A stretch of 64,000 nucleotides of DNA from Dehalococcoidia bacterium (GCA_965226785.1 CBDDEC010000004.1:588093-652092); one strand, 5' to 3'. Counted from the stretch's first letter, positions 37,176 through 63,795 are shown. The notes: generated by a model not told the origin, from the sequence alone. Program-made: numbers and translations.

Positions 37176-37830
37176 ATGACCGTGCTTTACCTCGGCGTCG
37201 TGATCTCGGTGTTGACGCTCCCGGCGTCGCGGCCGACGCAGGTGGTGGTGGGCCGGTCGGTGTTTGGCGACATGCTCGCCGGGTGGCGCTACGTCATACG
37301 CCAGCCACGCCTGCGCACGATGATCCTGCTCTTCTACTGCATGATCATGCTCGGTCTGTCTTCGACCACCGCCTTCCCTGGCCTGGTCGAGAACGAACTC
37401 GGGCGCAGGGTCGAGGACATCGGCGTGATGTCTCGGTGAGCGCGGTCGGCGGCCTGCTCGCGAGCGTCTTCGTCGCTCCGATCGCCGGTTCGAGGCGTGC
37501 GCTGCCGGTCTACGCGGCTGGCGGCGTCCTCACCGGGCTGTCGTTGGTGCTCGTCGGCCTGACGCCGACGTTCCTGCTGGTCTTCGGACCGATGTTCCTG
37601 ATGGGCCTGGGCACGGGCGCATTCCAGACACTCAACAGCGCCGTGATCGTCACCGAGTCGGCGCCGCAGTACTACGGCCGCGTCATCTCACAGACCTCGA
37701 TGGCGTTTGGAGCGTTCATGCTCGCCTCGCTGCCGGTCGGCCTCGCTGCCGGTCGGCCTCGCGGCCGACGCGTTCGGCGAGCGGGCGACACTGATCGTGA
37801 TCGGACTGCTGATCATCCCGTGGGGCGGCA
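37176..37830 (+). pseudogene. MFS transporter pseudogene (5'-truncated, frameshifted)
   Basis: Two frames carry segments homologous to residues about 170-430 of MFS gene 1336..2631 (YVIRQPRLRTMILLF, FPGLVENELG, ESAPQYYGRVISQT). A 16-bp tandem duplication tcgctgccggtcggcc x2 at 37721..37752 shifts the frame. Confidence 0.65.
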
Positions 37831-37916
37831 ATATTCCATCCAGTCCATGATTTCAGCTTTTCGGAGTCAGCGGCGCGCCTCGCGGATACGGCGGATGAGG
37901 TTTTCGTGCCCCACAG
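37829..37916. repeat. MITE-like ~90-bp repeat element A, copy 1 (terminal inverted repeats CGTGGGGC / GCCCCACAG)
   Basis: Near-identical copies at 53626..53723 and 56495..56592. Imperfect TIRs. The internal GGCGCGCC palindrome is within a duplex-like region. Confidence 0.6.
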
Positions 37917-37921
37917 GGTGG

Positions 37922-39629
37922 GGGTGTGAGATCTCGGTACCCGCACGACAGAACGGCTCCGGTACGTGCACGACATGTGGTGCAGGGTACTAGGCTGCAT
38001 TGATCCGGTCCGGCCTGCCACCTGGGTTCGCAAAGGCACCATGCTCCTTCCTGCGGTCGTGTCTGGCCGCGTGCGTACGAATGATTCGGTCATCGCTCCA
38101 GATCGGCACCGTGTCGCCTGCCAGGGAGACCTCCACCTGGCGTCCCCGGAACGCGTTGCCGACGCGGTAGTTGGCGCCCGCGAAGCTCACCGAGCCGTTG
38201 CGGTCGACCTTGCGGACGACCACCCGGTCCGAGGCCGGACGCTTCGGCGCCGCGGCGAGCGCCTGCTTCAGCACCCGCTCCTCCTGCTCAGGGAGGTGCC
38301 GCCGGGCGTGCGTCGCCACGAGCACCGCGTCGTGGAAGACCTCCACGAGACCGTCGTGACAGACGAGTTCGACGGACTGTCCGGCGAGGTAGCGGCCGAC
38401 GTGGTACTTGAAGTTGAGCAGGCTCACCTTGCCGTCCACGAGCACCCGCCGGAGCAGGCGCGGGGCCGGTGGACCGGGCTCACCCTCCGGGGCTGTTGCC
38501 ACCGGCTCCGACTCCTCAAGGGGCGTCGGATGCGCGGTGGCGAAGCGCTCGGCCGGGGGCCGGTTGCCGAGGCTCTGGTGCTCGCGGCAGTGGTTGTAGT
38601 CGTGCACCCAGGCGTCGATCGCTGCCTGCGCCTCGGCGATCGACGCGAAGACCTTGCCGTCCAGGGACTCCCGCTTCAGCGTCTTGTGGAAGCGCTCGAC
38701 CTTGCCGGTGGTGGTCGGTGACGCAGGCGCGGTCAGCAGGTGGCGGATGCCGTGCTCGCGGCAGATCCGGTCGAAGCGCACCTCGCTCTGGCGCGGCCCG
38801 AAGCGGCCGGTGAAGACCTTGCCGTTGTCGGAGAGGATCGCCTCCGGCACGCCGTGACGGCGCATTGCCTCCAGCAGGGCGTCGCAGACCGGCCGGGCGG
38901 TGGCGCGTGCGACGACCTTCGCCGAGACGCAGAACCGCGAGTGGTCGTCGATGCCCGTCACGATCGAGGGGCGCGAGCCATCCTGTAGCCGCACCCCGAG
39001 CGTAATGTCCATCTGCCAGAGCTCCATCGCCCGCGAGCGCTCCCAGCGCTTGTAGTCGCTGGGCCGCCTGCGCCGTCGCTTGGGGTCGATGAGCTGGTGG
39101 CGGACGAGCGCCCGGTAGATGCCGGACCGAGAGGGGAGAGGCGAGACGCCGGCGCGGGCAAGCCTGCTCAGGATCGTGCGCGGCCCCCAGCCGCGGTGCT
39201 GTCGTCTCATCTCGACGACGCGGGCCTCGACCGCCGGCGGCATCTGGTGCGGGCAGTTGCTGGGGCGTGAACTACGGTCGGCGAGCCCCGGGAGTCCTTC
39301 GGCCGCGTAGCGCCGCAGCCACGTGTGCACCGTCTGCCGCCCGACGCCGTAGCGACGCGCGACGTCGGTGACGCTCGCGGCTCCGTCGAGTACCTCGAGC
39401 ACCGCCCTATACCGCTGTTCCACGAGCCCCAACTCCACCAGCATGGCGGCCTCCTCCGCTGCGGACGGGATCGTCCACCGGGAGGGGCCCTCGAGCAGGA
39501 CCAGGAAGAGCAGCCAGGTGTCGCCCGGCTACCGGAGCCAGTGTCGCCTGCGTACCGGAGCCGCGTCCGCGAAGTGTCGTGCAGGTACCGGCGCCAGGGT
39601 GTCGCCTAGCTACCGGAACCTCACACACT
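37922..39629 (-). mobile_element. IS481-family insertion sequence (type 2), ~1.7 kb, with subterminal repeated motifs
   Basis: Ends are inverted: both read (GTGTCGYSNNGTACCGGNGCC)xN...CTCACAC outward. There are four direct copies of the ~22-bp motif at 39520..39615 and two at 37930..37985. A solo right-end copy lies at 56775..56841. Confidence 0.65.
37990..39444 (-). CDS. IS481-family DDE transposase (484 aa)
   Basis: N-terminal HTH (VTDVARRYGVGRQTVHTWLRRY). DDE core MELWQMDITL...ILSDNGKVF...HNHCREHQSLG. Long C-terminal extension. Confidence 0.75.
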   Translation of the reverse strand: MLVELGLVEQRYRAVLEVLDGAASVTDVARRYGVGRQTVHTWLRRYAAEGLPGLADRSSRPSNCPHQMPPAVEARVVEMRRQHRGWGPRTILSRLARAGVSPLPSRSGIYRALVRHQLIDPKRRRRRPSDYKRWERSRAMELWQMDITLGVRLQDGSRPSIVTGIDDHSRFCVSAKVVARATARPVCDALLEAMRRHGVPEAILSDNGKVFTGRFGPRQSEVRFDRICREHGIRHLLTAPASPTTTGKVERFHKTLKRESLDGKVFASIAEAQAAIDAWVHDYNHCREHQSLGNRPPAERFATAHPTPLEESEPVATAPEGEPGPPAPRLLRRVLVDGKVSLLNFKYHVGRYLAGQSVELVCHDGLVEVFHDAVLVATHARRHLPEQEERVLKQALAAAPKRPASDRVVVRKVDRNGSVSFAGANYRVGNAFRGRQVEVSLAGDTVPIWSDDRIIRTHAARHDRRKEHGAFANPGGRPDRINAA

Positions 39630-39800: not shown

Positions 39801-40727
39801 TCAGCGAGACACCGGGCCGATCATCTGGTCGCCCGGGGAGAAGCGATGGTGGCGTGTTGCCGCCTGCTCCGAGCGGTAGGCCGAGCTGTAGCGACGCACC
39901 ATGTCGGGCGAGGAGTGTCCGAGCAGGTACTGCACGTCGAGTTCGCGGGCATCGTGTGCGATGGCCCACGTCGCGAATGTGTGGCGGAAGCGATGCGCGT
40001 GCACTTTCGCCACTTCTGCGCGACGACCCAGGCGGCGGAGCATCTGCTTGAGCCCGTTCGGTCGGAGCGCGGTCGCTGGCTTCAACTCACCAAGGTGGCT
40101 GGCCGCTACGAAGAGCGGACCCGGAGCCGTTCCCCGCCGCTCGAGGTAGCGCTCCAGCGCGGCGCCACAGTGCGCTGCAAAGGGCACCACGCGCTGCTTG
40201 TTGCCCTTGCCGTGGCGTACGCGCAGCCGGCGCGTCTCGAGGTCGAGGTCATCGAGCGTCAGCTGAACGAGCTCTGAGCATCGCAGGCCAGTGTCGAGTA
40301 AGCACAGCACCATCGCACGATCCCGCAGCCCGAGCGCGGTGGCTGAATCGCACCCCGCCATCAGCTGCGCGATGTCGGCTGGCGAGAACGGCTCGACAAT
40401 GCGCTGTGGCAGCCGGACGTTCTTGATCCCCCGGAACGGGTTGTCTTGGAGGTGGCGAGCGTCGACGAGCCAGTTGAAGAAGCAGCGGACCTCGCGGAAG
40501 TAGCGGTGTCGAGTCTCAAGGCTGAGGTGAGAGAAGCCGCCCAAATAGCGGTAGACGTCTTCCGGCGTGACCGCCGCCGCGTCGGCGACCGTCACTGCGC
40601 GGGCGAAGCGATTCAGTGACTCTCGGTATGCGCGCACCGTCTGCGCGGACTTGCCCTCGACCTCACAGCGCAGGAGGTACAGCGCGCTTAGCTCGGTGAG
40701 GGAGGGGCTCGCGTTCATCACGAGCAT
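39801..40727 (-). CDS. tyrosine-type site-specific recombinase/integrase (Xer/phage-integrase family)
   Basis: C-terminal catalytic motifs ...HRFRHTFATWAI...LLGHSSPDMVRRY. N-terminal SAM-like domain. Start at ATG 40727; the ORF is open to a TTG at 40754. Confidence 0.8.
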   Translation of the reverse strand: MLVMNASPSLTELSALYLLRCEVEGKSAQTVRAYRESLNRFARAVTVADAAAVTPEDVYRYLGGFSHLSLETRHRYFREVRCFFNWLVDARHLQDNPFRGIKNVRLPQRIVEPFSPADIAQLMAGCDSATALGLRDRAMVLCLLDTGLRCSELVQLTLDDLDLETRRLRVRHGKGNKQRVVPFAAHCGAALERYLERRGTAPGPLFVAASHLGELKPATALRPNGLKQMLRRLGRRAEVAKVHAHRFRHTFATWAIAHDARELDVQYLLGHSSPDMVRRYSSAYRSEQAATRHHRFSPGDQMIGPVSR

Positions 40728-40756
40728 GGACGCTCTCTCCCAGGCCGAAGTCAAGC

Positions 40757-41497
40757 GGTGCCGCGGCCATCCGCATCGTCGGCGAGCTGCGTGCGCTTGG
40801 CTTCGACGTCAGCGCTCGCACCGTGAGTCGTTACCGCCGGCAAGCGCTGCGGCGACCGCCGAGCCAGTCGTGGCGCACGTTTCTCCGCAACCACGCGTCC
40901 AGCATCTGGGCCGCCGATCTGTTCACGGTCCAGACGCTCGCCTTCCGCACGCTCTCCGTGCTCATCGTGATCGACCACGACCGGCGCCGCATCCGGCACT
41001 GGAACGTCACGGAGCATCCGAACGCGCCCTGGATCTGGCAGCAGATGATCGAGGCGACCGCCTGGGGTCAGCAGCCAGGGTTCCTCATCCGAGACCGCGA
41101 CCGTAGCTATGGCGGAGACTTCATCGCACGCGCTCGACGGCTCGGGATCGAGACGATTCTGACTCCGGTGCACGCGCCGAATGCCAACGCCATCGCCGAG
41201 CGCGTCATCGGCACGCTCAGGCGCGAGTGTCTCGACCATGTCATCGCGGTCAACGAACAACATCTCCGGCGGGTGCCTGGTGAGTACGTCCAGCACTACA
41301 ACGCGATGCGGCCGCATCGATCATTGGCGCTCGACTCTCCGGAGGGACGCTCGCCGGTGCAGCGGACGCCGAGTCAGCGAGTTGTCAGCAAGCCGGTGCT
41401 AGGAGGTTTGCATCATGAGTATCGGTGGGCCGCATCAGGTTTTGCCGACTTGTTTGAATCCGGCCAGACACCGGGGGTTGCGGCCCTAAGGTGTTGA
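40757..41497 (+). pseudogene. IS481-like (type 1) element copy D: 5'-truncated transposase, stop codon mutated, right IR interrupted by IS110
   Basis: Homologous to the transposase 51259..52338 from residue ~135 onward. Terminal GCATGAGGTTTTGCCGTCCCAC is altered to GCATCAGGTTTTGCCG|ACTTG. The remaining CCCACGG is found at about 42673. Confidence 0.7.
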
Positions 41498-51236: not shown

Positions 51237-52353
51237 GTGGGACGGCAAAACCTGATAGGTGCAGCTCTGTCCTGAGATAGCAGAGTATCGGCGAGCCACG
51301 AGAGGCTCGTCTGTGCTCTACCTCCGTCTGCTTGTCGCAGCACTCTTCGCATCGGTCCGCGCCCGCCGAGATCTCGTCCTCGAGAACTTGGCGCTGCGGC
51401 ATCAGCTCGCCGTCTACACAAGGGGCCGTCGTCGACCGCGGCTCCGTCGCCACGACCGCCGACTCTGGTCACTGCTGGCACGTGGTTGGTCCGGCTGGCG
51501 AGGCACGCTCGTGATGGTCGAGCCGGACACGGTGGTGCGCTGGCATCGTTCTGCTTGGCGCGCCTACTGGCGCTGGAAGAGTCGTCGCCGCTCCGGACGA
51601 CCCCGGATTCCCGCAGAGCTGCGACAGCTGATCGTCCGCATCGCCACTGAGCATCCGCGGTGGGGCGCCGTCCGCATCGTCGGCGAGCTGCGTGCCCTTG
51701 GCTTCGAGGTCAGCGCCCGCACCGTGAGTCGCTACCGTCAGCAGGCGCTCCGGCGACCGCCGAGTCAGTCGTGGCACACGTTTCTCCGCAACCACGCGTC
51801 CAGCATCTGGGCCGCCGATCTGTGCACGGTCCAGACGCTCGCCTTCCGCACGCTCTCCGTGCTCATCGTGATCGACCACGACCGGCGCCGCATCCGGCAC
51901 TGGAACGTCACGGAGCATCCGAACGCGCCCTGGATCTGGCAGCAGCTGATCGAGGCGAGCGCCTGGGGTCAGCAGCCAGGGTTCCTGATCCGAGACCGCG
52001 ACCGTAGCGATGGCGGAGACTTCATCGCACGCGCTCGACGGATCGGGATCGAGACGATTCTGACTCCGGTGCACGCGCCGAATGCCAACGCCATCGCCGA
52101 GCGCGTCATCGGCACGCTCAGGCGCGAGTGTCTCGACCATGTCATCGCGGTCAACGAACAACATCTCCGGCGGGTGCCTGGTGAGTACGTCCAGCACTAC
52201 AACGCGATGCGTCCGCATCGATCATTGTCGCTCGACTCTCCGGAGGGACGCTCGCCGGTGCAGCGGACGCCGAGTCAGCGAGTCGTCAGCAAGCCGGTGC
52301 TAGGAGGCTTGCATCATGAGTATCGGTGGGCCGCATGAGGTTTTGCCGTCCCA
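51237..52353 (+). mobile_element. IS481-like (type 1) insertion sequence, copy A (~1.1 kb, intact)
   Basis: Terminal IRs GTGGGACGGCAAAACCT (left) and rc at the right end. Copies at 57243.. (truncated), 60041..61158 (intact), 63921.. (edge), 40757.. (fragment). Confidence 0.8.
51259..52338 (+). CDS. DDE (rve integrase-core) transposase, IS481-like single-ORF type (359 aa)
   Basis: N-terminal leucine-zipper/HTH (LVLENLALRHQLAV, HPRWGAVRIVGELRALG). Core IWAADLFTVQT...LIRDRDRS...RPHRSL. Confidence 0.8.
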   Translation: MQLCPEIAEYRRATRGSSVLYLRLLVAALFASVRARRDLVLENLALRHQLAVYTRGRRRPRLRRHDRRLWSLLARGWSGWRGTLVMVEPDTVVRWHRSAWRAYWRWKSRRRSGRPRIPAELRQLIVRIATEHPRWGAVRIVGELRALGFEVSARTVSRYRQQALRRPPSQSWHTFLRNHASSIWAADLCTVQTLAFRTLSVLIVIDHDRRRIRHWNVTEHPNAPWIWQQLIEASAWGQQPGFLIRDRDRSDGGDFIARARRIGIETILTPVHAPNANAIAERVIGTLRRECLDHVIAVNEQHLRRVPGEYVQHYNAMRPHRSLSLDSPEGRSPVQRTPSQRVVSKPVLGGLHHEYRWAA

Positions 52354-52564
52354 CGGCCAGCCCGGGTCGCCGAGGTCCCTTGCCGAGATGGCCGTGGCCT
52401 CTGGCGAGATGGAGCCGGGAAAGAGCTCCAGCAGCACATCGGGCGAGCTGGTCCCCGCGCTAGGTATGGTGGGCTGCCCGCGAACTCCGCCACGATCAAG
52501 TCGGCGAAGTCGCCAGCAGAGACTTCGCGTTGGGGGGCAGCCTGTGAAGCAGGGCAGTAGGTCG

Positions 52565-52882
52565 TCACTCAGTGGGACTGCCGAGCCCGTGCGTGATCAG
52601 TTTCGTGGCGATCCCGATGTCATCCGAGTCTTTGAGGACGGCGAACGCGGGGACTCCGGCGAAGAACTCGACGACGCTGACCTCCAGTTCGTCGAGGATC
52701 GTGAGCAGGTTCACCACCGAGATGTCACGCGCGCCGCTCTCGTACAGAGAGAGCGATCCCTGGGACAGGCCCACGGCCTCTGCAACGCGCTGCTGCGAGA
52801 CCTTGCGTAGGAGACGAATCTCCCGGAGACGCGCCCCGACCGACCGCACCAACGCACTCTTCGGTGGTTTGCTCTTCGGCAC
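52565..52882 (-). CDS. XRE-family helix-turn-helix transcriptional regulator
   Basis: LREIRLLRKVSQQRVAEAVGLSQGSLSLYESGARDISVVNLLTILDEL HTH_3 pattern. 105 aa. Confidence 0.7.
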   Translation of the reverse strand: MPKSKPPKSALVRSVGARLREIRLLRKVSQQRVAEAVGLSQGSLSLYESGARDISVVNLLTILDELEVSVVEFFAGVPAFAVLKDSDDIGIATKLITHGLGSPTE

Positions 52883-53083
52883 GTAGTAGACCCTTCGCTG
52901 TCGATGGGCTCTGGCACGACCCCGCGCAAACCGCGCCGAACGTGCAGTGGGTGCGTGATTTCTACGACGACTTGCAGCCGCACTCGACCGGGCAGATCTA
53001 CGTCAATTTCCTCGGCGGCCGCGCATCGCTCCCGTGATTACGGGGCACCCACCAGCACGCCACGGGGCGACTGGTGAGTGGAA

Positions 53084-53413
53084 TCAGAACGGCGGATCGC
53101 CCTTCCCTGTTAGTTGGACAACGTGCGTCGCTTCTGGCCCGGCGGTATCCATCCTCACGGCGCCAAGGGAGCCGATGGGCGCCGATCGGCCGTCGCTGAG
53201 GCGTAGCTCGCTCGGTGGCTCGTCGCCCACCCAGCGTAGGCCGACCGCCGCTGGGGCGGTCAGCTCCCCGCCCCAGCGGGCACCGCGGACCTCGAGGCTC
53301 AGCTTCCAGAGCTCAGCCGCCACCTCAGCCACCACGATCCCGTTCGGATCGAGTAGCTCGGCGGTGCCCTGCCAGTGCACCGTCCGCTCGGTGGGTTTCA
53401 TGATCAACGCCAT
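53084..53413 (-). CDS. hypothetical protein
   Basis: 109-aa ORF upstream of, and co-oriented with, the XRE regulator. No motif recognised. Confidence 0.35.
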   Translation of the reverse strand: MALIMKPTERTVHWQGTAELLDPNGIVVAEVAAELWKLSLEVRGARWGGELTAPAAVGLRWVGDEPPSELRLSDGRSAPIGSLGAVRMDTAGPEATHVVQLTGKGDPPF

Positions 53414-53625
53414 CTTCCTGGTCGATCGGCGAGCGCATGCGACTCAGACAACGATACCGCGATCCTCCAGTGGGGCAGACATCAGGCGGTGGAGCCGAAG
53501 GGCTTCGACAGGCTGTGCGGGCGTGGGCCGTGCGCTGGGACGGCTACCCGACCGACCTACGTCGGCGACAGAGACACCACGATCACGATCTCGGCACAAA
53601 GACATACACGATGGGTGAACACACC

Positions 53626-53723
53626 CGTGGGGCGGCAATATTCCATCCAGCCCATGATTTCAGCGTTTCGGAGTCAGCGGCGCGCCTCGCGGATACGGCG
53701 GATGAGGTTTTCGTGCCCCACAG
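53626..53723. repeat. MITE-like repeat element A, copy 2
   Basis: See 37829..37916. Confidence 0.6.
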
Positions 53724-53752
53724 GTGTGGGGCGCGGGTGACACGGCCGAGGA

Positions 53753-54088
53753 GTGCATGCAGTCTCTCGACGAACGATTGGGCTCTGGGTCGAGGCGGAG
53801 CTCGAGGGCGGCCGGGACATTCCCGAGCCGAGTGACCCGGAGCGCTACTCGGGCCACTACACGCTGCGCATCCCGCCGGCGCTCCAAGCGGACGCTGCCG
53901 AGTTCGCGGAGCTGCAGGGTGTAAGCCTCAACCGTGTCTTCTCTGCCGCCATCGCGTTCTACGTCGGCCGGCACACCGGTGGCATCGCGGTTGATGAGCT
54001 GGCACCACCGGTGCACCGAGAGCTCGTGCCGTTTCAGCTCGAAGCTCTAGAGAAGATCGTCGACCTACAGGGGGCTGCGGGCGGATGA
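53753..54088 (+). CDS. ribbon-helix-helix (CopG/HicB-antitoxin-like) DNA-binding protein
   Basis: YSGHYTLRIPPALQADAAEFAELQGVSLNRVFSAAIAFYV resembles the C-terminal RHH of HicB-family antitoxins. No HicA partner found. Confidence 0.4.
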   Translation: MHAVSRRTIGLWVEAELEGGRDIPEPSDPERYSGHYTLRIPPALQADAAEFAELQGVSLNRVFSAAIAFYVGRHTGGIAVDELAPPVHRELVPFQLEALEKIVDLQGAAGG

Positions 54089-54651
54089 CGAACGTTCAGT
54101 CCAGCTTGGACCGTGCGCGGCTCGAGCAGTTCGAGTCAGGCTTTCGGGATCGTCGGCGCGAGATCGCTCTCGCAAGATCGTCGAACAAACACAAGCTCTC
54201 ACCCTCAGCAGCTGTGAAGTTGCTGAACGCACAGGGCTCTCGACGGCGGGTATGACGGCAGCGTGAGAGATGGCCCATCGCGAAATGTGAAGCCTCGCTG
54301 TCGCTCAGGATGCGGATTGGAGCGACCGACGGCGGCGCAGAGGGGGCTCGTCGGCAGTCGGTGGAGGTAGCCAGCGCTTTGCCCGATTGAGCCTCGAGGT
54401 GGGTGCCACCGACGACGCTCGATCTTGGTCGCACCGGGTATAGGCACCATTGGAGGCCCCCTGACCGCTCTCTAGTAGTGGGTGGGGCGGGCTGTCAGTC
54501 GAGCTCGTGGAAGTCGGGAACGGAGGAGCCGGCTTCGACGCCGTCGGTCGCAGTCTGGCGAGCGAGCTCGCCGCAGGGGCGATGCCACCTCGAGGGCGCG
54601 CGCCCGGCGCGCCTCGGGTGAGGTAAGCTCGCGACGGACCGAGGAGACGCC

Positions 54652-55708
54652 CGTGACGACCAGCATCGAGACCCCGCAGCCGCGCCTCCACGTCGTCGAG
54701 GACGAGGCATCCGCGATCGACTACTGCTACGAGCAGGGGTGGACGGACGGCCTGCCCGTCGTGCCTCCTACCGAGGAGCGCGTGCAGGCGATGCTCGAGT
54801 GGGCCGCGCGCCCGCCCGAGGAGGTGCTGGCGACGCACCCACCGACCGGACGCGCCTGCACGGTGTACGCGGCGGCGGTGAACGCCGTCCTTGCCGGGTG
54901 TTTGCCGGAGTACTTCCCGGTGGTGATTGCGGCGCTTGAGGCGATGAGCGAGCCGGAGTACGCGTACCACGCCTCGACGGCGAGCACGGGCGGGTCGGTG
55001 CCGATGCTGATCGTGAGCGGCCCGATCAAGGACGAGATCGCGATGAACTCCGAGGGCAACGTCTTCGGCTCGGGTAACCGCGCCAACGCCACGATCGGGC
55101 GCGCGATTCGCCTCGTCACACTTAACGTCTTCAAGATGACGCCCGGGATCGCCGACCGCTCAACGACCGGCTGGCCCGGCAAGTACTCGTGCTGCATCGC
55201 CGAGTACGAGGAGGCGAGCCCTTGGAAGCCGCTGCGCGTCGAGCTGGAGTTCCCGGACGAGATCAGCACGGTCACGGTCTTCGCCGCGAGCGGCTTCTAC
55301 AACATCGAGAACCACTACACCGACGACCCGGAGGCGCTGCTGACGACGTTCTCTGATGCGATGGCGAGCCTGGGCGCGTTCAGCCCCGGCGAGTCGGTAG
55401 TCGTGTTCTCGCCGGAGCATGCGGCGATCGCCGCCAGCGGTGGCTGGTCCAAGCAGGACGTGCGCGAGTTCCTCTTCGAGCGCGCCGCGCGCACGCGCGA
55501 GGAGCTGCGCCGCGCGGGCAAGGTCCCCGGCCCTGTCGAGCCCTCGGACGGGACGACCCTGGTACATCGCGGGCACTCGCCTGAGGACATATTGATCGCG
55601 GTCGCAGGGGGTGAGGCGGGCGGTCACTCCGCGTTCCTCACCTCGTGGAGCCGCGGCCGCGGCTCGCTACGCCAGACGGCGCCCATTGGCGTCTGCGTCG
55701 ACTGCTAG
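54652..55708 (+). CDS. hypothetical protein, co-operonic with the UGSC selenoprotein candidate
   Basis: GTG start with RBS GAGGAGA 6 nt upstream; the ORF is open from 54482. 352 aa with several Cys pairs (CCIAEY, GVCVDC). 9-bp gap to the next gene. Confidence 0.5.
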
Positions 55709-55717
55709 GGAGGCAGC

Positions 55718-56290
55718 GTGATGGCCGTACAACTGGTCGACCCGACCGTCGAGGCGCCGGACACCGACAACTCGTACGCTCCGCGCCTCGAAGTCCTCGA
55801 CGGGTTACGCATCGGGCTGCTCTGGAATGGCAAGGTGAATGCCGACGCGCTGCTGCGCGAGACGGCGCGCTGCTTCGAGGAGCATCACGGCTGCGCGGTC
55901 GTCGATGAGGCCTCGAAGCCCTCGGCGAGCCACATAGCAGAGCCGCAGGTGCTGGAACGTCTGGCGGAGAACGTCGACTTTCTGATCACCGCGGTAGGGG
56001 ACTGAGGCTCCTGCTCGACGTGCAGTGTGCACGACGGTATCTCGTTCGAGCAGCTCGGCAAGCCGGCCCTCGTGCTGTGCACGAAGCCGTTCGAGGCGAC
56101 GGGCCACATGATCGCCACGACGACAGGGCTGCCTGACTTCCGCTTCGCCCTCCTCGACCACCCGATCGGGAGCGCCAGCGCAGCAGGCATCGCCGCCCGC
56201 GCCGAGGATGCCTACCGGCAAGGGTTGTCGATCCTGCGCGCGGACCAGCAGCCAACCAGATTCGTCGAAAAAGCCAAGCCCTCACCCTGA
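55718..56290 (+). CDS. UGSC-family selenoprotein candidate (in-frame TGA at 56003..56005 read as Sec)
   Basis: Two same-frame ORFs (55718..56005 and 56027..56290) are joined by a single TGA. Translation through it gives ...DFLITAVGD-U-GSCSTCSV..., the U-G-S-C motif. A stable hairpin follows 11 nt later. Confidence 0.6.
56016..56036 (+). promoter_or_regulatory. candidate bacterial SECIS stem-loop
   Basis: CGACGTGCA-GTG-TGCACGACG: a 9-bp stem with one mismatch and a 3-nt loop, starting 11 nt after the UGA. Confidence 0.45.
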
Positions 56291-56494
56291 GGCGCTACCA
56301 GCCTGTTGAGCTCAGCGGTCTGACGCTCGCGGTGTGACGCTGGCAGGGTTCCGGACCCGAGCGCAGTGCTTCACACCTGAGTGTCGGAGTCAATCCGCTC
56401 GCGTGTCGCCGTAGAAGTAGAGCTGGTCGCCGGCGAGCGTCGGCGGTCCATGCCTCGAAGTCGCCCGGTGACATCGCCGCCCAGTCCGGGGTCT

Positions 56495-56592
56495 CGTGGG
56501 GCGGCAATATTCCATCCAGCCCATGATTTCGGCGTTTCGGAGTCAGCGGCGCGCCTCGCGGATACGGCGGATGAGGTTTTCGTGCCCCACAG
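56495..56592. repeat. MITE-like repeat element A, copy 3
   Basis: See 37829..37916. Confidence 0.6.
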
Positions 56593-56774
56593 CGGGCATG
56601 CCGAGTCACCGGCCAGCACCGCTCCACACAGCGCCGCCTGTCGGCGCGCGGCCACGGCGACGACGCGCTGCGGACGGAGTTGCACGCCTTCTCGCGTGGC
56701 CACCCCCGCTGGGGTTACCGCCGGGCGTGGCGCGGCGGCTGAATGACCGCCTCGCAGTCCGGCGCTATTGAGAA

Positions 56775-56841
56775 GTGTGGGTGTGAGATCTCGGTACCCG
56801 CACGACAGAACGGCTCCGGTACCTGCACGACATGTGGTGCA
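56775..56841. repeat. solo right-end remnant of the type 2 IS481-family element
   Basis: GTGTGGGTGTGAGATCTCGGTACCCGCACGACAGAACGGCTCCGGTACCTGCACGACATGTGGTGCA is about 95% identical to 37917..37985. No transposase adjacent. Confidence 0.6.
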
Positions 56842-56952
56842 CGCGAACTGGCAACCGCGCCCAGCCGCTTCGCATCGTCAGAAACTGCCGTCAGCACTGG
56901 GCGGATGCGCCGCGAGGACCTTGGGGTACACGAGCGAGGCGAAGCATCCGCG

Positions 56953-57238
56953 CTATGCGGGTGGTGAGTCGTCCCTCTCTTCACCATCATCGCCGGCATC
57001 CTCGTCGCCATCGCCATCGCCGTCGATAAGGTCGCGCGCCCGATCGACTGTTCCGCTGGCGGCGTCCACAACCGCCTCGGCCGCGTCGCCAGCCGTTTCG
57101 ACGACCTGGTCGGCGGCCGATGAGGCCGCCCCCGCCGCGCCGCTCGCTGCGTCAGCCGCGCCGCCAGCGAGGTCGCCTGCAACGCCCTTTCCTCTTCCGA
57201 ACATCCCCTTGATTGAATCGAGCAGTCCCATGCACCAC
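56953..57238 (-). CDS. small hypothetical acidic/Gly-Ala-rich protein
   Basis: MGLLDSIKGMFGRGKG... ORF ending at an Asp/Glu-rich tail. Start lies 3 bp from the IS481-like copy B left end. The longer 168-aa ORF is antisense to the IS end. Confidence 0.3.
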
Positions 57239-57242
57239 CGCC

Positions 57243-58172
57243 GTGGGACGGCAAAACTTGATCCGTGCAGGTCTGTCCTGAGATAGCAGAGTATCGGCGA
57301 GCCACGAGAGGCTCGTCTGTGCTCTACCTCCGTCTGCTTGTCGCAGCACTCTTCGCATCGGTCCGCGCCCGCCGAGATCTCGTCCTCGAGCACTTGGCGC
57401 TGCGGCATCAGCTCGCCGTCTACACAAGGGGCCGTCGTCGACCGCGGCTCCGTCGCCACGACCGCCGACTCTGGTCACTGCTGGCACGTGGTTGGTCCGG
57501 CTGGCGAGGCACGCTCGTGATGGTCGAGCCGGACACGGTGGTGCGCTGGCATCGTTCTGCTTGGCGCGCCTACTGGCGCTGGAAGAGTCGTCGCCGCTCC
57601 GGACGACCCCGGATTCCCGCAGAGCTGCGACAGCTGATCGTCCGCATCGCCACTGAGCATCCGCGGTGGGGCGCCGTCCGCATCGTCGGCGAGCTGCGTG
57701 CCCTTGGCTTCGAGGTCAGCGCCCGCACCGTGAGTCGCTACCGCCGGCAAGCGCTGCGGCGCCCCCCGAGCCAGTCGTGGCGCACGTTTCTCCGCAACCA
57801 CGCGTCCAGCATCTGGGCCGCCGATCTGTTCACGGTCCAGACGCTCGCCTTCCGCACGCTCTCCGTGCTCATCGTGATCGACCACGACCGGCGCCGCATC
57901 CGGCACTGGAACGTCACGGAGCATCCGAACGCGCCCTGGATCTGGCAGCAGATGATCGAGGCGACCGCCTGGGGTCAGCAGCCAGGGTTCCTGATCCGAG
58001 ACCGCGACCGTAGCTATGGCGGAGACTTCATCGCACGCGCTCGACGGCTCGGGATCGAGACGATTCTGACTCCGGTGCACGCGCCGAATGCCAACGCCAT
58101 CGCCGAGCGCGTCATCGGCACGCTCAGGCGCGAGTGTCTCGACCATGTCATCACGGTCAACGAACAACATCT
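57243..58172 (+). mobile_element. IS481-like (type 1) copy B, 3'-truncated by nested IS3 insertion
   Basis: Left IR and the first about 290 codons of the transposase (57265..58172) are present. The gene runs directly into the IS3 IR at 58173. Confidence 0.8.
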
Positions 58173-58222
58173 TGAACCGCCCCGGGAATGTTGGAGGCTC
58201 CAGTCCTTGAGAGGATGGAGCG

Positions 58223-59430
<1,208 letters not shown>

Positions 59431-59519
59431 ACCGAGTCTCCACTAGCGAACCCGGGGCGGTTCAGTCCGGAGAACCGGGTCAGGCTCCGAGAGCCTCAGT
59501 TTGAGTCGAGGAGGAAAGC

Positions 59520-59927
59520 ATGTCCATCCTGATTCGTGCGGCAGCGGCTTACCTTGTGTTGCTTGCGGCTGTGGTTGCCGTAAATTTTATCGTTACTCCC
59601 CTGTACCACCCGGGCGGAGACGAGCCATTCACGGTGTGGGAGATACTCAACTGGTTCATGGCGGTGGGTATGGTGATTGCCTTGGCCGGCAGCTACGTGG
59701 AAAAGCGCCGTGTCGATGGCGACGGTTCGGCGGACCTGAAGCGATACCTAGAAGCGAACGCGGTTTTCTACGGGGTAGTTGCTGTGTTCATCCTGTTCTT
59801 CTGGAACTGGTTTAGCTCTCTGTCTCCCAACAACGAGGCCGACGGACAATTTTGGGCCGTCATCGACACCCTCATGCCCATCGTGATGGGCGTAACGGGC
59901 TGCCGCATGTGCAGACACAGCAGCTGA
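59520..59927 (+). CDS. hypothetical membrane protein
   Basis: 135 aa, 4 hydrophobic helices. RBS GAGGAGGAAAG upstream. Confidence 0.5.
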   Translation: MSILIRAAAAYLVLLAAVVAVNFIVTPLYHPGGDEPFTVWEILNWFMAVGMVIALAGSYVEKRRVDGDGSADLKRYLEANAVFYGVVAVFILFFWNWFSSLSPNNEADGQFWAVIDTLMPIVMGVTGCRMCRHSS

Positions 59928-60040
59928 CCAAGGAACGCCGCGCAAGGTCTCTGGCAAAGCCCGTTGCGACCCTTGGTACGAGTTCGCAGTACAGCACGCT
60001 TAGGCCCACCACCCTGACTGAAGACAACACCGGGGCCGCC

Positions 60041-61158
60041 GTGGGACGGCAAAACCTGATAGGTGCAGCTCTGTCCTGAGATAGCAGAGTATCGGCGAGC
60101 CACGAGAGGCTCGTCTGTGCTCTACCTCCGTCTGCTTGTCGCAGCACTCTTCGCTTCGGTCCGCGCCCGCCGAGATCTCGTCCTCGAGAACTTGGCGCTG
60201 CGGCATCAGCTCGCCGTCTACACCCGGGGCTGTCGTCGACCGCGGCTCCGTCGCCACGACCGCCGATTCTGGTCACTACTGGCACGCGGTTGGTTCGGCT
60301 GGCGAGGCACGCTCGTGATGGTCGAGCCGGACACGGTGGTGCGGTGGCATCGTTCTGCTTGGCGCGCCTACTGGCGCTGGAAGAGTCGTCGCCGCTCCGG
60401 ACGACCCCGGATTCCCGCAGAGCTGCGACAGCTGATCGTCCGCATCGCCACTGAGCATCCGCGGTGGGGCGCCGTCCGCATCGTCGGCGAGCTGCGTGCC
60501 CTTGGCTTCGAGGTCAGCGCCCGCACCGTGAGTCGCTACCGCCGGCAAGCGCTGCGGCGCCCCCCGAGCCAGTCGTGGCGCACGTTTCTCCGCAACCACG
60601 CGTCCAGCATCTGGGCCGCCGATCTGTTCACGGTCCAGACGCTCGCCTTCCGCACGCTCTACGTGCTCATCGTGATCGACCGCGACCGGCGCCGCATCCG
60701 GCACTGGAACGTCACGGAGCATCCGAACGCGCCCTGGATCTGGCAGCAGATGATCGAGGCGACCGCCTGGGGTCAGCAGCCAGGGTTCCTGATCCGAGAC
60801 CGCGACCGTAGCTATGGCGGAGACTTCATCGCACGCGCTCGACGGCTCGGGATCGAGACGATTCTGACTCCGGTGCGCGCGCCGAATGCCAACGCCATCG
60901 CCGAGCGCGTCATCGGCACGCTCAGGCGCGAGTGTCTCGACCATGTCATCGCGGTCAACGAACAACATCTCCGGCGGGTGCTTGGTGAGTACGTCCAGCA
61001 CTACAACGCGATGCGTCCGCATCGATCATTGTCGCTCGACTCTCCGGAGGGACGCTCGCCGGTGCAGCGGACGCCGAGTCAGCGAGTCGTCAGCAAGCCG
61101 GTGCTAGGAGGCTTGCATCATGAGTATCGGTGGGCCGCATGAGGTTTTGCCGTCCCAC
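60041..61158 (+). mobile_element. IS481-like (type 1) insertion sequence, copy C (intact)
   Basis: IRs as in copy A. Transposase 60063..61142 (359 aa, a few substitutions relative to A). Confidence 0.8.
60063..61142 (+). CDS. DDE (rve) transposase, IS481-like type 1
   Basis: About 97% identical to 51259..52338. Confidence 0.8.
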   Translation: MQLCPEIAEYRRATRGSSVLYLRLLVAALFASVRARRDLVLENLALRHQLAVYTRGCRRPRLRRHDRRFWSLLARGWFGWRGTLVMVEPDTVVRWHRSAWRAYWRWKSRRRSGRPRIPAELRQLIVRIATEHPRWGAVRIVGELRALGFEVSARTVSRYRRQALRRPPSQSWRTFLRNHASSIWAADLFTVQTLAFRTLYVLIVIDRDRRRIRHWNVTEHPNAPWIWQQMIEATAWGQQPGFLIRDRDRSYGGDFIARARRLGIETILTPVRAPNANAIAERVIGTLRRECLDHVIAVNEQHLRRVLGEYVQHYNAMRPHRSLSLDSPEGRSPVQRTPSQRVVSKPVLGGLHHEYRWAA

Positions 61159-61588
61159 GGGCCCATAACTACGCCTGTATCGCGGTTCAGTGTGGCACCA
61201 TCACTCGCGGGTAGCAGCGGCGAAGTTGGGGCAATGGCCATGTACGCCGGTGACTCCGTGCGTTTCATCCGCGGGGTCGAACCTGCGAGTGAGATAGTTC
61301 GCGAGATCGCTGAAGGTGCCGACGAGCTCCTGCGTGCGCGGAGCTGAGATCCCCGGCCCCCGGCAGGGCTGACTGCGTATTGACGCCCGGGCAGCATCTT
61401 CCTCTGGGACGGCGACGGCTCAATGACGCACGAGGACTCGATGCGCAGCCTGCGGCTGATGGGCGAGGAGGTGCTCCCTGCCATGCGCGAAGTCGCCGAC
61501 GAACTCCGCCTAGACGGCCCCTTCGACGTCCACCCGATGACCGGAGCACGCCGCGAAGGCTCGGCCGTCGAGGGCTAGGCGCGTCTTC

Positions 61589-62815
61589 CTACGCCCCCAC
61601 CTCGCCGAGGTCGCGGAGGGCCTCGGCGAGACGCTCATAGTCGGCGCGGGTGTTGTAGAGCTGCGCCGAGACGCGCAACAGGCGTCGAGGCGGCGACGGC
61701 CAGCGCATCACGGGCACCTCAATGCGGTAGTCCTCGATCAACGTGGCGTTCAGTTTGTCGGACGGTCCGCGTCCGGGCGTGACGTCGTCGGGCCAGCGCA
61801 GCGGCAGCGCCGCCATCGAACCGAGCATGTCGTCGGGCGCTGGTGCTGTGGTCATGTCGAGGGCGTCTACCAGCAGGTCACGAGCCTCGAGGGCGAGTGC
61901 GTGGTTGCGTTGGCGGATGGCGTCCCAGCCGCCTTCGTGCGCCGCGCCGACCGCGTCGATCGCGGTCGGGACGCAGAGCCAGGGAGTGATGTCGGCGGTG
62001 CCGAGCCAGTCGAACTCGTGGTGGAAGCGAGAGCGCGAGGCGTCTTGAGCGTTCGCGCCGTGGCTGATCACAGTCGGGCGGATCGCGGACTGACGCTGTG
62101 GTGCGACCCAGAGGAAGCCAGCGCCCTTCGGCGAGCAGAGCCACTTGTGGCAGTTGCCGCTGTAGTAGGTCACGCCGACCTCTGCGAGGCTGTCGAGGTC
62201 CAGCGGGATCATTCCGGGCGCATGCGCGCCGTCGACCAGCACCTCAATGCCGCGCGAGGTGAGTGCCGACGCCATTTCCTCGAGGGGGAGCACTAGCGCG
62301 GTAGGGCTCGTGATGTGATCGACCATTGCCAGGCGAGTCCTCGAGCTGACGCGCTCGAGCAGCGAATCGACGACCTCGCCCGGCGACTCGATCGGGAACG
62401 GGATTGGCGCGACGACGACTGTGGCGCTCGCGCGCTCGGCGACGAAGTCGAGGGCATTGCGGCACGCATTGTAGGCATGGTCGGTCACGAGCAGCTCATC
62501 GCCGGGCTCGAAGCGCAACGAGCGCAGCACGGCGTTGACGCCGGTGGTCGCGTTGTTCACGAAAGCGAGATCGGCCGTTCGAGCGCCGACGAACGCGGCG
62601 AGTGCCGCGCGAGCGTCATCGATGCGCTGTTGTCTCGTGCGGGTCAAGAACTCGATCGGCTCGCGCTCGAGTTCGTCGCGCAACGCCTGCTGGCGTGCCA
62701 GCACGGGCCGAGGTGTCGCGCCGTAGGAGCCATGGTTGAGGTATGCGACCTCCGGGTCGAGCGCCCAGAACTCCTGTGTCGTGCTGCTCCCGGCTGGCGG
62801 CGCGCCGTCGCTCAC
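61589..62815 (-). CDS. class V aminotransferase-fold PLP-dependent enzyme (cysteine desulfurase/isopenicillin-N-epimerase-like)
   Basis: AYLNHGSYGATPRPV N-terminus. PLP-lysine region YYSGNCHKWLCSPKGAGFLWV. 408 aa. Confidence 0.7.
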   Translation of the reverse strand: MSDGAPPAGSSTTQEFWALDPEVAYLNHGSYGATPRPVLARQQALRDELEREPIEFLTRTRQQRIDDARAALAAFVGARTADLAFVNNATTGVNAVLRSLRFEPGDELLVTDHAYNACRNALDFVAERASATVVVAPIPFPIESPGEVVDSLLERVSSRTRLAMVDHITSPTALVLPLEEMASALTSRGIEVLVDGAHAPGMIPLDLDSLAEVGVTYYSGNCHKWLCSPKGAGFLWVAPQRQSAIRPTVISHGANAQDASRSRFHHEFDWLGTADITPWLCVPTAIDAVGAAHEGGWDAIRQRNHALALEARDLLVDALDMTTAPAPDDMLGSMAALPLRWPDDVTPGRGPSDKLNATLIEDYRIEVPVMRWPSPPRRLLRVSAQLYNTRADYERLAEALRDLGEVGA

Positions 62816-63795
62816 TGCGAGGTGGCGAGCGCGACCGCTGCGAACGATCGCTCGACCGAGCCGGCGCGGTCCTCGCGGTCGACGAGCGGCTGCGCGAGCA
62901 CCTCGTCGATGCCGGCATCGCGCCAGCGGTGAAGCCCTGCGGCGACCTCCTCGACCGTGCCTGAGACGACGAGGTCGTCGAGCAGGTCGTCGCTATAGCC
63001 GTCGCTGACGTCATAACCGGCGGCGCTGAACATGCCCTGGTAGTTCGGCACGCGGGCGTACATCGCGAGCTGCTCGCGCGCCCAGCTGCGAGCCGTCTCC
63101 AGATCGACGCCGACGGCGATCGGCACGTGTGCGACCAGCGGCGGGCGCTCACGGCCCGCGGTCGCGGCGCCGGCCTCCATCGCCGGCAGCGCCGTGCCTA
63201 GCAGGTAGCGCAGCGGGCTCATCCACGAGATTGCGCCGTCACTGAGCTCGCCACAGAGCTCGTACGACTTTGGGCGCAGCGCAGAGGCCATCACCGGCAC
63301 CTCGGCGGTGGCCGAAATTCGGCCGCGGGAGCGGACGTGCACGCCCTCGAACTCGACCCGCCCCTCGGCCAGCAGGGTGCGCAGCGTCAACAGGTACTCG
63401 CGCAGATTCGTGAGCGGCTTGTGGTACGCAGTGCCATAGAGGCGGGTGACAAAGAACTCGGTGGTCGGGCCGATGCCGAGGCGGAAGCGGCCGGGTGCGA
63501 GCTGGTCGAGAGCGAGCAGCTCCTGCGCATAGATCACGGGGTGACGCGGCCAGGTGTGGAGGATGGCGGTGCCCATCTTGACACGCTCGGTCTGGACCGC
63601 GATCGCGGCGAAGACGGGCAGCATATCGGCGCCCCCGGCGCCGTTCATCGTCGCCCAGATCGACTCGATACCGGCCGCCTCGGCGGAGATCGCCTGAGCG
63701 ACCGCGCCTCGCGCGTCGCTCGCCTGGATCGCTACACCGAACATGCTCGCCTGCTCTCTCGCAGCGCTCGTGCCGTAGGAGGCACAGCCTCGCAC
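62812..63795 (-). CDS. LLM-class F420/flavin-dependent oxidoreductase
   Basis: MFGVAIQASD...LGIGPTT...PMLAV luciferase-like pattern. 4-nt overlap with the aminotransferase gene. Start may be ATG 63744. Confidence 0.7.
   Translation of the reverse strand: MRGCASYGTSAAREQASMFGVAIQASDARGAVAQAISAEAAGIESIWATMNGAGGADMLPVFAAIAVQTERVKMGTAILHTWPRHPVIYAQELLALDQLAPGRFRLGIGPTTEFFVTRLYGTAYHKPLTNLREYLLTLRTLLAEGRVEFEGVHVRSRGRISATAEVPVMASALRPKSYELCGELSDGAISWMSPLRYLLGTALPAMEAGAATAGRERPPLVAHVPIAVGVDLETARSWAREQLAMYARVPNYQGMFSAAGYDVSDGYSDDLLDDLVVSGTVEEVAAGLHRWRDAGIDEVLAQPLVDREDRAGSVERSFAAVALATSQ

Follow-up and report, generated by a model that had tools for sequence, protein, structure and literature searches.

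Organization of the locus

The window is a 64,000-nucleotide stretch of an IS-rich Dehalococcoidia genome. By a hand tally of element lengths, about 40% of its 37.8–64 kb part is insertion sequence (IS), MITE, or recombinase sequence. At 51.2–61.2 kb, copies of one 1121-bp IS and of a 98-bp MITE are interspersed with other genes, among them a two-gene operon that includes a predicted selenoprotein gene. IS copies A, B, and C were delimited by self-comparison of the window.

37819–37916, +: MITE copy M1
37924–39626: true IS481-family element, passing the IS481 model at 299 bits and beginning (G)TGTGAG
40755–41447, +: IS fragment, IS positions 422–1113
46865–52356: 5.5-kb segment with a CoA-transferase gene, the luciferase-like oxidoreductase gene LLM1, and IS copy A
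51236–52356, +: IS copy A, intact, 1121 bp, with transposase ORF 51259–52338
52357–53625: XRE-hypothetical module, a repeated sequence always joined to the right end of the IS
52565–52882, −: XRE-family helix-turn-helix regulator, 105 aa (Pfam HTH_3, E = 2.6e-11)
53084–53413, −: hypothetical gene, 105–109 aa, with no Pfam or NCBIfam family match
53626–53723, +: MITE copy M2, 98 bp, at the junction of two modules
53753–54088, +: HicB-family (ribbon-helix-helix type) gene (Pfam PF05534, 33 bits; cut-off 21)
54573–56253: operon core common with an IS-free locus (98.3–98.9% identity to L012, L102, and L103)
54653–55708, +: 351-aa gene, UGSC partner, with no Pfam or NCBIfam match
55721–56290, +: predicted UGSC-family selenoprotein gene with an in-frame Sec codon, TGA, at 56006–56008
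56495–56592, +: MITE copy M3, 98 bp
56775–56841, +: solo terminal fragment of the true IS481-family element
56953–57231, −: small acidic 92-aa gene (gene call in L001; no Pfam match), touching the left end of copy B
57242–58172, +: IS copy B, IS positions 1–931 only, right end gone
58173–59464, +: IS3-family element, 1292 bp, truncating copy B (NCBIfam IS3 model, 325 bits), with overlapping orfA (58223–58543) and orfB (58540–59430)
59520–59927, +: 135-aa membrane-protein gene in the B–C spacer
60040–61160, +: IS copy C, intact
61589–62815, −: class-V aminotransferase (Pfam)
62812–63795, −: luciferase-like oxidoreductase (Pfam)
63920 onward, +: IS copy D, extending past the window end at 64000

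The cargo that the initial annotation placed between copies A and B (XRE, hypothetical, and HicB-like genes, MITEs, and the selenoprotein operon) is present as stated. No HicA partner of the HicB-family gene is seen.

Anatomy and family of the insertion sequence

Copies A and C are intact, with full-length ORFs and termini that form a perfect 18-bp inverted repeat, CGTGGGACGGCAAAACCT. Copy B is broken at IS position 931 by the IS3-family element that begins at 58173; in L002, which comes from another sample, B is uncut and all three copies are complete. Pairwise identities, far beyond chance, are 97.7% for A/C (1121 bp), 98.0% for A/B (931 bp), and 98.1% for B/C, a mutual divergence of 2–2.3%. 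The intervals measure 4885 bp between A and B and 7683 bp between A and C. These measurements bear out the geometry first described for the locus, with all three copies in the same orientation at coordinates that agree within 1–3 bp, spacings of about 4.9 and 7.7 kb, and a truncated B. The fourth copy, D, which is present in full length in L009, and the fragment at 40755–41447, which has a tyrosine-recombinase gene and an IS110-family element as its neighbors, had been overlooked.

The transposase contains Pfam rve_3 and HTH_32 domains, and its homologues are single proteins of 341–346 aa. Its single ORF occupies 96% of the element, in keeping with the single, frameshift-free ORF in an element of about 1 kb that is expected of IS481. 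It nevertheless scores only 81.1 bits against the IS481 model (NCBIfam NF033577, cut-off 224), which returns 299 bits for the ORF at 37990–39444 within the same window as a positive control. Against the IS3 model (NCBIfam NF033516, cut-off 160) it scores 94.3 bits and, as a single ORF, does not form the orfA/orfB pair with a −1 frameshift that is typical of IS3. IS481-family termini, as defined by ISfinder, start with TGT, and insertion creates a duplication of 4–15 bp; the present IS ends in CGTGGGAC...GTCCCACG, with no duplication visible. The label "IS481-like" used in the initial annotation is not verified, at 81 bits against 224, and the IS3 cut-off is not reached either. The element shares with both families a DDE transposase that combines an rve_3 core with helix-turn-helix domains at its N terminus. 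It resembles IS481 in the one ORF filling a ~1.1-kb element and IS3 in that its homologues carry the InsO-family name, as IS3 orfB does. Further points of difference are termini that read CGTGGGAC or TGGGAC rather than TGT, the absence of a frameshifted orfA/orfB pair, and no visible 3–15-bp duplication.

The 98-bp repeat is short and non-coding, with three copies in the window and eight distinct contexts overall, as expected of a MITE. Its termini resemble the IS inverted repeats (CGTGGGGCGGCAAT... vs CGTGGGACGGCAAA...; at the right end about 20 of 24 bases match), and the IS transposase may mobilize it. M2 and M3, in direct orientation at a distance of 2869 bp, enclose the HicB gene and the operon. 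No target-site duplication is found at MITE copies in the eight contexts, and none flanks the IS3-family element at 58173–59464, which is 99.5–99.7% identical to copies at 12954–14245 and 27314–28605. The fragment at 56775–56841 matches 37918–37984, where the true IS481-family element has its inverted-repeat end, at 97% identity; in L096 this end is found next to a similar transposase gene.

The selenoprotein operon

The UGSC-containing selenoprotein family was described by Zhang and Gladyshev in 2008 (PMC2398784). The window gene scores 126.6 bits against the family model NCBIfam NF041046 (cut-off 125; Pfam PF24696), and its U-G-S-C motif reads D-TGA-G-S-C, with the in-frame TGA kept in 77 of 78 homologous loci. 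Judged by its sequence, it is a genuine selenoprotein gene of this family. A candidate SECIS hairpin begins 17 nt downstream of the UGA (GUGCA-GUG-UGCAC); its C/U wobble conservation in homologues is confounded with coding, and its fold energy is no better than that of shuffled sequences (z = 0.52). Of 80 genome loci from several phyla, at least 76 have the 351-aa gene directly beside a UGSC gene, and this pairing recurs in dozens of genomes from marine, sponge-associated, and other uncultured bacteria. What sets the window copy apart from the rest of the family is its position within what appears to be an IS mosaic and, relative to the IS-free copy, a TAG-to-CAG change at that copy's stop position, which adds a 14-residue C-terminal extension.

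The IS-free locus (L012, L102, and L103) has flanks unrelated to the window. Only 54573–56253 is common; the shared stretch begins 80 bp before the 351-aa gene and extends to where that copy has its stop codon. A related genome, MAG CBDAOL01, also has the operon at an IS-free locus. In related contigs the two genes recur at 98.9–99.9% nucleotide identity in at least six different left contexts; besides that of the window, at least five left junctions are seen, the IS-free locus among them. A search of the 2.99-Mb contig for a second operon copy at ≥90% identity finds none.

The homology boundaries of the operon are nested and coincide with the ends of mobile elements. On the left they fall at 53625 (M2), 54232 (an inverted IS end), 54322 (an IS6 end), 54573 (the IS-free locus), and 55091; on the right they fall at 56253, 56324, 56494 (the start of M3), 57242, and 58172. 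The operon at 54573–56253 is best read as a secondary copy of a two-gene operon that is widespread; related contigs differ in whether they have this copy.

The view that the selenoprotein module is IS-borne cargo rather than core genome agrees with this picture in so far as the module is accessory, IS-associated, and variably present. In the proposed presence/absence comparison, L010 has the same right-hand core genes and lacks the operon at this site, and the A..B unit is seen only in the window and L002. Base composition shows no difference from the neighborhood: the GC of the interval (0.646–0.680) and the GC3 of the operon genes (0.83–0.88) both match those of flanking genes, which fits an origin within the same lineage.

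The XRE, hypothetical, HicB, and 92-aa genes accompany the operon in none of the 80 genome loci. An identical XRE protein occurs at eight places on seven contigs, and the hypothetical gene travels with it. Their module lies beside the IS in L093–L097 and L002 at 98–99.7% identity, giving at least five contexts besides the window. In all but two cases its match to the window breaks off at the base where M2 starts; L093 stops at 52991, and L094 continues through the MITE.

Alternative flanks and excess divergence inside the IS copies

Every IS or MITE copy examined has one fixed and one variable flank. The 46865–52356 segment is present twice on the 2.99-Mb contig; the second copy (L006, 6706–12198) is 99.6% identical, and the match stops precisely where the IS ends on the right; unrelated PLD, MZB, helicase, and MmeI-type genes follow. 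The left flank of copy A, the LLM1 gene, is thus followed by three different right flanks (the window, L006 on the same contig, and L008). Conversely, the right flank of copy C, the aminotransferase gene, is constant in all contigs (the aminotransferase-oxidoreductase pair at 61589–63795 also lies next to C in L002, L010, and L104) and is preceded by three left flanks (the window, L002/L010, and L104). The B–C spacer is specific to this genome; L002 and L010 have instead a DUF3179 gene and a 272–274-aa gene, and L104 has a Trypsin_2 gene. The 92-aa gene to the left of copy B leads into the IS3-family element in the window, other DNA in L002, and an IS6 element in L003, while in L104 and L097 this flank runs on without any IS into sequence unrelated to the right flank of B. 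M2 has one fixed right flank and three left flanks (the window, L003, and L106), and L101/L011 and L107 cease to match the window at the base where M3 begins.

Mismatches concentrate in the IS copies. Between the window and L006, unique DNA has 7 mismatches over 4371 bp, against 14 over the 1121 bp of the IS. None falls within IS positions 1–367; every one of the 14 is at position 368 or beyond, with 13 of them at 51824–52352. Between the window and L002, unique DNA has 6 mismatches in 4885 bp and 1 in the 2840 bp rightward, while the IS copies have 24 in the 931 bp of B and 28 in the 1121 bp of C. Between samples, unique DNA differs by ~0.1% and same-position IS copies by 1.7–2.6% (15–20-fold), with the caveat that all sequences are metagenome assemblies, in which consensus errors or strain-chimeric paths through 97–98% identical repeats could make the IS copies look more mosaic than they are. 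Variant blocks are common to IS copies in a patchwise manner.

Origin of the arrangement

The 51.2–61.2 kb region is probably a mosaic in which IS and MITE copies served as sites of recombination, conversion, and deletion. Its modules would have been put together, exchanged, and shortened at scattered copies of the high-copy 1.1-kb IS, with its 98-bp MITE relative and the nested IS3, IS6, and IS481 elements as further join points. Direct copies A, B, and C would then be junction points rather than the two ends of a transposing unit, and homologous recombination, gene conversion, or one-ended adjacent deletion may have replaced a single flank of each copy and left the opposite one in place. The constancy of one flank and the 15–20-fold excess of IS divergence argue for such processes and against a bounded unit that moves. 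Direct observation covers how the repeats are built, the other contexts in which the modules occur, the exact breakpoints at the ends of IS and MITE copies, and the surplus of mismatches inside IS copies; which process formed each junction, whether recombination, conversion, or deletion by the transposase, and in what sequence the events took place, is inferred. No reciprocal products (for example, LLM1-IS followed by the right flank of B or C) are found, so no single recombination event is reconstructed. At each junction, independent insertion with later loss of a flank would look the same as recombination.

Two smaller mobile units, fused at M2, are an alternative we consider unlikely: (i) an IS-bounded unit with the XRE gene, the hypothetical gene, and a ~276-bp spacer, and (ii) a MITE-bounded M2-HicB-operon-M3 cassette moved by the IS transposase in trans. 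The first unit is complete in L095, with both IS copies direct, and recurs in L096 and L097 with the XRE-side IS lost or cut; the three places differ in their outer neighbors, and two are on a single contig. L095 is, however, the only place with both IS copies complete. For the second unit, the IS-like MITE termini, the direct orientation of M2 and M3 around HicB and the operon, and the contigs whose homology breaks exactly at M2 or M3 are suggestive, but no context has M2...M3 with both outer flanks new, the operon copies of L101 and L104 lack M2 and HicB and break at 54232 and 54322, and the eight MITE contexts are free of target-site duplications. Mobilization units bounded by two MITEs are known from integrons. 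Two direct, non-autonomous 98-bp copies with resident-IS-like termini around a small gene cassette recall such units; here, in contrast, there are no duplications and no second site with both MITEs and new flanks, and the MITE positions act as breakpoints, not unit ends.

It is improbable that the arrangement exists in no single cell and arose when assembly of a mixed-strain metagenome ran chimerically across 1.1-kb repeats. The source is indeed a metagenome contig (ENA ERZ28763718 ctg125171), several alternative arrangements (L002, L003, L008, and L010) come from one strain-mixed sample (ERZ21829562), and the junctions B/IS3, IS3/membrane gene, and membrane gene/C are seen only in this contig. 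Nevertheless, the A-XRE-hypothetical-M2-HicB-operon-M3-92-aa-B order was independently assembled in L002 with only the 6 mismatches in 4885 bp noted above, two more samples span 53635–57241 (L004) and 53695–55105 (L005), and contig names suggest long-read assemblies, which would normally span a 1.1-kb repeat.

The initial annotation raised the possibility of a composite transposon, in which the outer ends of A..B (4.9 kb) or A..C (7.7 kb) mobilize the XRE, HicB, and selenoprotein cargo together. Three direct copies of one IS do surround the cargo, A and C (and in L002 all three) are intact, and related contigs vary in whether they carry the module. The outer flanks are nevertheless unlike (A left, ...TCTGGG; B right in L002, GTGATG...; C right, GGCCCA...). 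Copy B has no outer inverted repeat here, so the outer ends of A..B are not both intact; those of A..C are, but they enclose a truncated IS and an IS3 element. The bounding copies are 2–2.3% divergent, and A with its left flank is itself duplicated next to a different right partner. In searches of one genome per species and by exact-protein look-ups, the whole block occurs only at this locus (the window and L002), while parts of the cargo are found separately, with other partners and nested breakpoints. The duplications proposed as a check are absent around the unit and around single copies: in about ten IS contexts, the ends show only an invariant CG. Since no IS or MITE copy shows a variable duplication, this test has no discriminating power for the element. 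With one end of B missing, the block at a single locus, and its parts independent, a composite transposon is the least probable of these explanations, and very unlikely.

Comparison with known systems

Like Tn5, Tn9, and Tn10, the locus has two copies of one IS around unrelated cargo, and, as in Tn9, direct copies can also delete the cargo by recombination. The locus differs from all three in showing no duplication around the unit, one truncated bounding copy, divergent bounding copies (2–2.3%), no second site for the block, and independently distributed cargo parts. The mosaic reading has parallels in IS-expanded bacteria, where IS-driven rearrangement is exemplified by IS481 in Bordetella pertussis and by the IS expansions of Shigella. 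Transposase-rich sponge symbionts (PMC4850255) are a further comparison system. In all of these, many near-identical IS copies serve as portable homology, with deletions, duplications, and flank swaps that give strong structural heterogeneity between close strains. The present case differs in its host, an uncultured member of the Dehalococcoidia whose sponge origin is inferred from the names of the closest genomes only, and in its IS type.

The stretch thus appears to be a strain-variable patchwork joined at mobile elements rather than a transposon moving in one piece, and such an IS-mosaic arrangement would represent an ordinary kind of genome plasticity.

Insertion Sequence Copies and Related Elements

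Self-comparison of the window agrees with the initial annotation that three direct copies of one insertion sequence (IS), A, B, and C, surround the selenoprotein genes and their neighbors, and the gene content matches the list given there. The element is 1121 bp long, ends in a perfect 18-bp terminal inverted repeat (CGTGGGACGGCAAAACCT), and is filled by a single ORF (51259–52338 in copy A) with rve_3 and HTH_32 domains. Pairwise identity among the three copies is 97.7–98.1%.

Repeats, mobile elements, and operon genes in the window
37819–37916, M1, 98-bp MITE
37924–39626, true IS481-family element (NF033577, 299 bits)
40755–41447, IS fragment (IS positions 422–1113)
51236–52356, + strand, IS copy A
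53626–53723, M2, 98-bp MITE
54653–55708, + strand, 351-aa gene
55721–56290, + strand, UGSC selenoprotein gene
56495–56592, M3, 98-bp MITE
56775–56841, 67-bp solo end of the IS481-family element, inside the A–B interval
57242–58172, + strand, IS copy B, stops at IS position 931
58173–59464, 1292-bp IS3-family element, begins where B ends
60040–61160, + strand, IS copy C
63920 and beyond the window, fourth IS copy

The earlier label “IS481-like” is loose: with 81 bits for the IS481 model and 94 bits for the IS3 model, the transposase of A, B, and C stays below both cut-offs (224 and 160, respectively). The positive control in the same window is the IS481-family element at 37924–39626, which encodes a 484-aa transposase and has 52-nt imperfect inverted repeats of the (G)TGTGAG type, starting GTGTGAG. 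At least 7,900 database homologues of the A/B/C transposase exist, mostly of 341–346 aa; those that are named are “putative transposase” or “InsO family”, and plasmid homologues (30–50% identity) are annotated merely as “integrase core domain-containing protein”. The termini of the 98-bp MITE resemble those of the A/B/C element. This is an abundant IS group without a name, with thousands of homologues and an associated MITE, that fails the curated IS-family models.

M1 abuts one end of the IS481-family element. Nearby, a tyrosine-recombinase gene (39801–40754) abuts the 5′-truncated IS fragment, the 3′ end of which is cut by an IS110-family element (transposase gene 41608–42657). The same truncation at IS position 422 beside a recombinase gene recurs in two related loci (L097 and L104).

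Target-Site Duplications and Empty Sites

Flanks were tabulated for about 10 IS copies, some in the window and some in related contigs, for the MITE in eight contexts, and for three IS3 copies. None of the IS copies has a variable duplication, and left flanks never match right flanks; each copy is flanked on both sides by an invariant CG, often inside CCG…CGG. The MITE and the three IS3 copies likewise lack target-site duplications. The outer flanks (A left, C right, and B right as taken from L002, a contig of another sample in which B is intact) share nothing. Since no IS copy duplicates anything variable, the search for duplications proposed by the initial annotation cannot discriminate between a mobile unit and single copies. 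Candidate empty sites were also rejected: L104 and L097 have the left flank of B without the IS and continue into DNA unrelated to the right flank of B, and L095 and L096 lack M2, yet their continuation differs from that of the window.

Contexts of the Left Side

The segment 46865–52356, which comprises a CoA-transferase gene, the luciferase-like oxidoreductase gene LLM1, and copy A, is repeated about 71 kb away on the same contig with 99.6% identity (L006). The match stops precisely at the IS right end, beyond which unrelated genes follow, and in L008 the same flank and IS have a third right-hand partner. The genes downstream of the IS in L006 (a PLD-family protein, an MZB protein, a large helicase, and an MmeI-type methyltransferase/endonuclease) look like a defense system. 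A further, inverted LLM1 copy, 99.8% identical, lies upstream in L006.

The module to the right of A (52357–53625), consisting of an XRE regulator gene and a hypothetical gene, adjoins the IS right end at no fewer than five further places, two of which share a contig. Wherever this pair is repeated (the window and L093–L097), the XRE gene is 208 bp from the IS right end. Homology to the window ends at the first base of M2 in L095–L097, where the module is followed by a spacer of 276 bp and then by another direct copy of the IS; it ends earlier in L093 (52991), and L094 has a MITE at the M2 site too. The XRE and hypothetical genes are linked to the IS rather than to the operon and may form a composite unit of small size or be passengers resembling a toxin-antitoxin pair.

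Contexts of the Operon

The compared operon copies, which share an identical N-terminal part of UGSC, join their surroundings at several different points.

Operon junctions in related loci (window coordinates)
Left, M2: L003, L106
Left, 54232, inverted IS end: L101 (= L011)
Left, 54322, IS6 end: L104
Left, 55091: L105
Right, 56324
Right, 56494, start of M3: L101, L107
Right, 57242, without B: L104
Right, intact B: L002

One locus is free of IS copies and lies among ordinary metabolic genes, both in the metagenome-assembled genome CBDAOL01 and in a second sample (L012/L102/L103). It has only 54573–56253 in common with the window, a stretch that begins 80 bp before the 351-aa gene and ends with the stop codon, at 98.3–98.9% identity. 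Its upstream neighbors are beta-lactamase-family and luciferase-like genes, and thiolase and ChsH2-like genes lie downstream. CBDAOL01 carries an IS-associated operon copy too (L011). Synteny was considered as a sign that the IS-free locus is ancestral; its downstream thiolase-like gene has counterparts around the operon at some 20 Dehalococcoidia loci, but only with 36–39% identity and at a distance of 5–9 kb, which is weak evidence.

To the right, L010 has copy C, an aminotransferase gene, and the luciferase-like oxidoreductase gene LLM2, while the operon is absent from the site. The B–C spacer exists in three unrelated versions. The ancestral neighbors of the aminotransferase gene could not be read from its 72% homologue, which sits in an unrelated context. 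The suggestion that the selenoprotein module is IS-associated accessory DNA is borne out for this operon copy, which is secondary and variably present among related contigs.

In L003, a 9-kb contig of sample ERZ21829562, the HicB-operon-B segment lies between two inverted IS6-family copies of the element found at 45700–46647 of the window, together with tyrosine-recombinase and DUF3644 genes. This arrangement could be an IS6-bounded unit or merely a contig broken at repeats.

Divergence and Composition

Between the window and L006, unique DNA has 7 mismatches in 4371 bp and the IS has 14 in 1121 bp, with none in the first 367 bp. Against L002, unique DNA has 6 mismatches in 4885 bp and, to the right, 1 in 2840 bp, while IS mismatches number 8 over 473 bp for A, 24 over 931 bp for B, and 28 over 1121 bp for C. 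Blocks of variants recur patchwise among the IS copies. This excess of IS mismatches and the patchwise variants imply that other copies have converted or replaced those at matching positions. An IS serving as portable homology would be expected to leave such a pattern, to which the assembly consensus inside repeats could also contribute.

Composition gives no signal of foreign DNA, as the GC content of 52–57 kb (0.646–0.680) is indistinguishable from that of its flanks (0.667–0.712 and 0.677–0.685), in a window of 65% GC. GC3 is 0.83–0.88 in the operon genes, like the flanking metabolic genes, and 0.75–0.81 in the XRE, hypothetical, and HicB genes, closer to transposase genes. Elsewhere, direct IS3-family copies at 12954–14245 and 27314–28605, 99.9% identical to each other and 99.5–99.7% identical to the one that follows B, bracket about 13 kb of metabolic genes (peptide ABC transporter, luciferase-like oxidoreductase, NHL-repeat protein, CoA-transferase, beta-lactamase-family protein, MaoC, and enoyl-CoA hydratase) of slightly lower GC (0.565–0.653).

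The Selenoprotein Operon

The UGSC gene is genuine. It carries the motif D-TGA-G-S-C and passes NCBIfam NF041046 with 126.6 bits (cut-off 125). Of 78 homologous loci, 77 keep the in-frame TGA. UGSC proteins form an abundant and already described family of marine selenoproteins (PMC2398784). The 351-aa gene and UGSC are adjacent in nearly all of 80 genome loci from several phyla, including Dehalococcoidia, Alpha- and Gammaproteobacteria, and Entotheonella, with two tandem pairs in L076. The XRE, hypothetical, HicB, and 92-aa genes occur in none of these 80 loci, and the 351-aa gene is the sole conserved partner of UGSC. Because this operon copy is secondary and unstable as a locus, the XRE, HicB, and 92-aa genes are not to be taken as functional partners. 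The 351-aa protein has no Pfam or NCBIfam match and is perhaps equivalent to “Unknown_1”, a domain reported fused to UGSC (PMC2398784).

The TAG stop codon of the IS-free version is CAG here, which adds 14 residues to the UGSC protein (56246–56290), the C-terminal part being 87 aa in the window copy vs 73 aa. Coding differences between the window operon and L103 number 17 (9 synonymous, 8 not), too few for interpretation of selection on the secondary copy. A promoter and terminator scan found nothing over shuffled expectation, and the window contains no tRNA genes.

Origin of the Interval

The interval is a patchwork that runs from CoA-transferase–LLM1–A through XRE–hypothetical gene, M2, HicB, the operon core, M3, the IS481-family solo end (56775–56841), 92-aa gene–B, IS3, and a membrane-protein gene to C–aminotransferase. 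Every joint falls at a mobile-element end, and each repeat has one constant and one variable flank. Recombination or conversion between dispersed copies, one-ended deletions, and nested insertions would build such an interval, and a mosaic of this origin is the probable explanation.

Smaller mobile units, either an IS-XRE-IS composite as suggested by L095–L097 or an operon cassette bounded by MITEs, are unlikely, the operon also having junctions away from M2 and M3. For the A-to-B part a pure assembly artefact is very improbable, because the independent assembly of another sample contains it as well. The composite transposon (A..B or A..C) raised by the initial annotation on the strength of the direct copies is most improbable, as it fits neither the separate contexts of the parts nor repeats with one constant flank.

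The window comes from a metagenome contig of 2.99 Mb (ENA ERZ28763718 ctg125171). Among genomes that share the operon, the nearest belong to uncultured Dehalococcoidia/Chloroflexota, and many of them bear isolate names of a type usual for sponge-symbiont bins, which suggest a sponge origin of the sample. Transposase richness and population heterogeneity are known for sponge symbionts (PMC4850255); the phenomenon is ordinary and the organism unusual.

In an IS-dense genome, direct IS copies around genes are weak evidence of a composite transposon, since the same picture arises here by repeat-mediated shuffling. It is conceivable, if quite doubtful, that the operon is being copied and moved as a discrete cassette (the 1.7-kb core or the 2.9-kb M2..M3 segment), mobilized in trans by the resident IS transposase in what is probably a sponge-associated Dehalococcoidia population; if so, transposable elements would here be spreading a selenoprotein gene.
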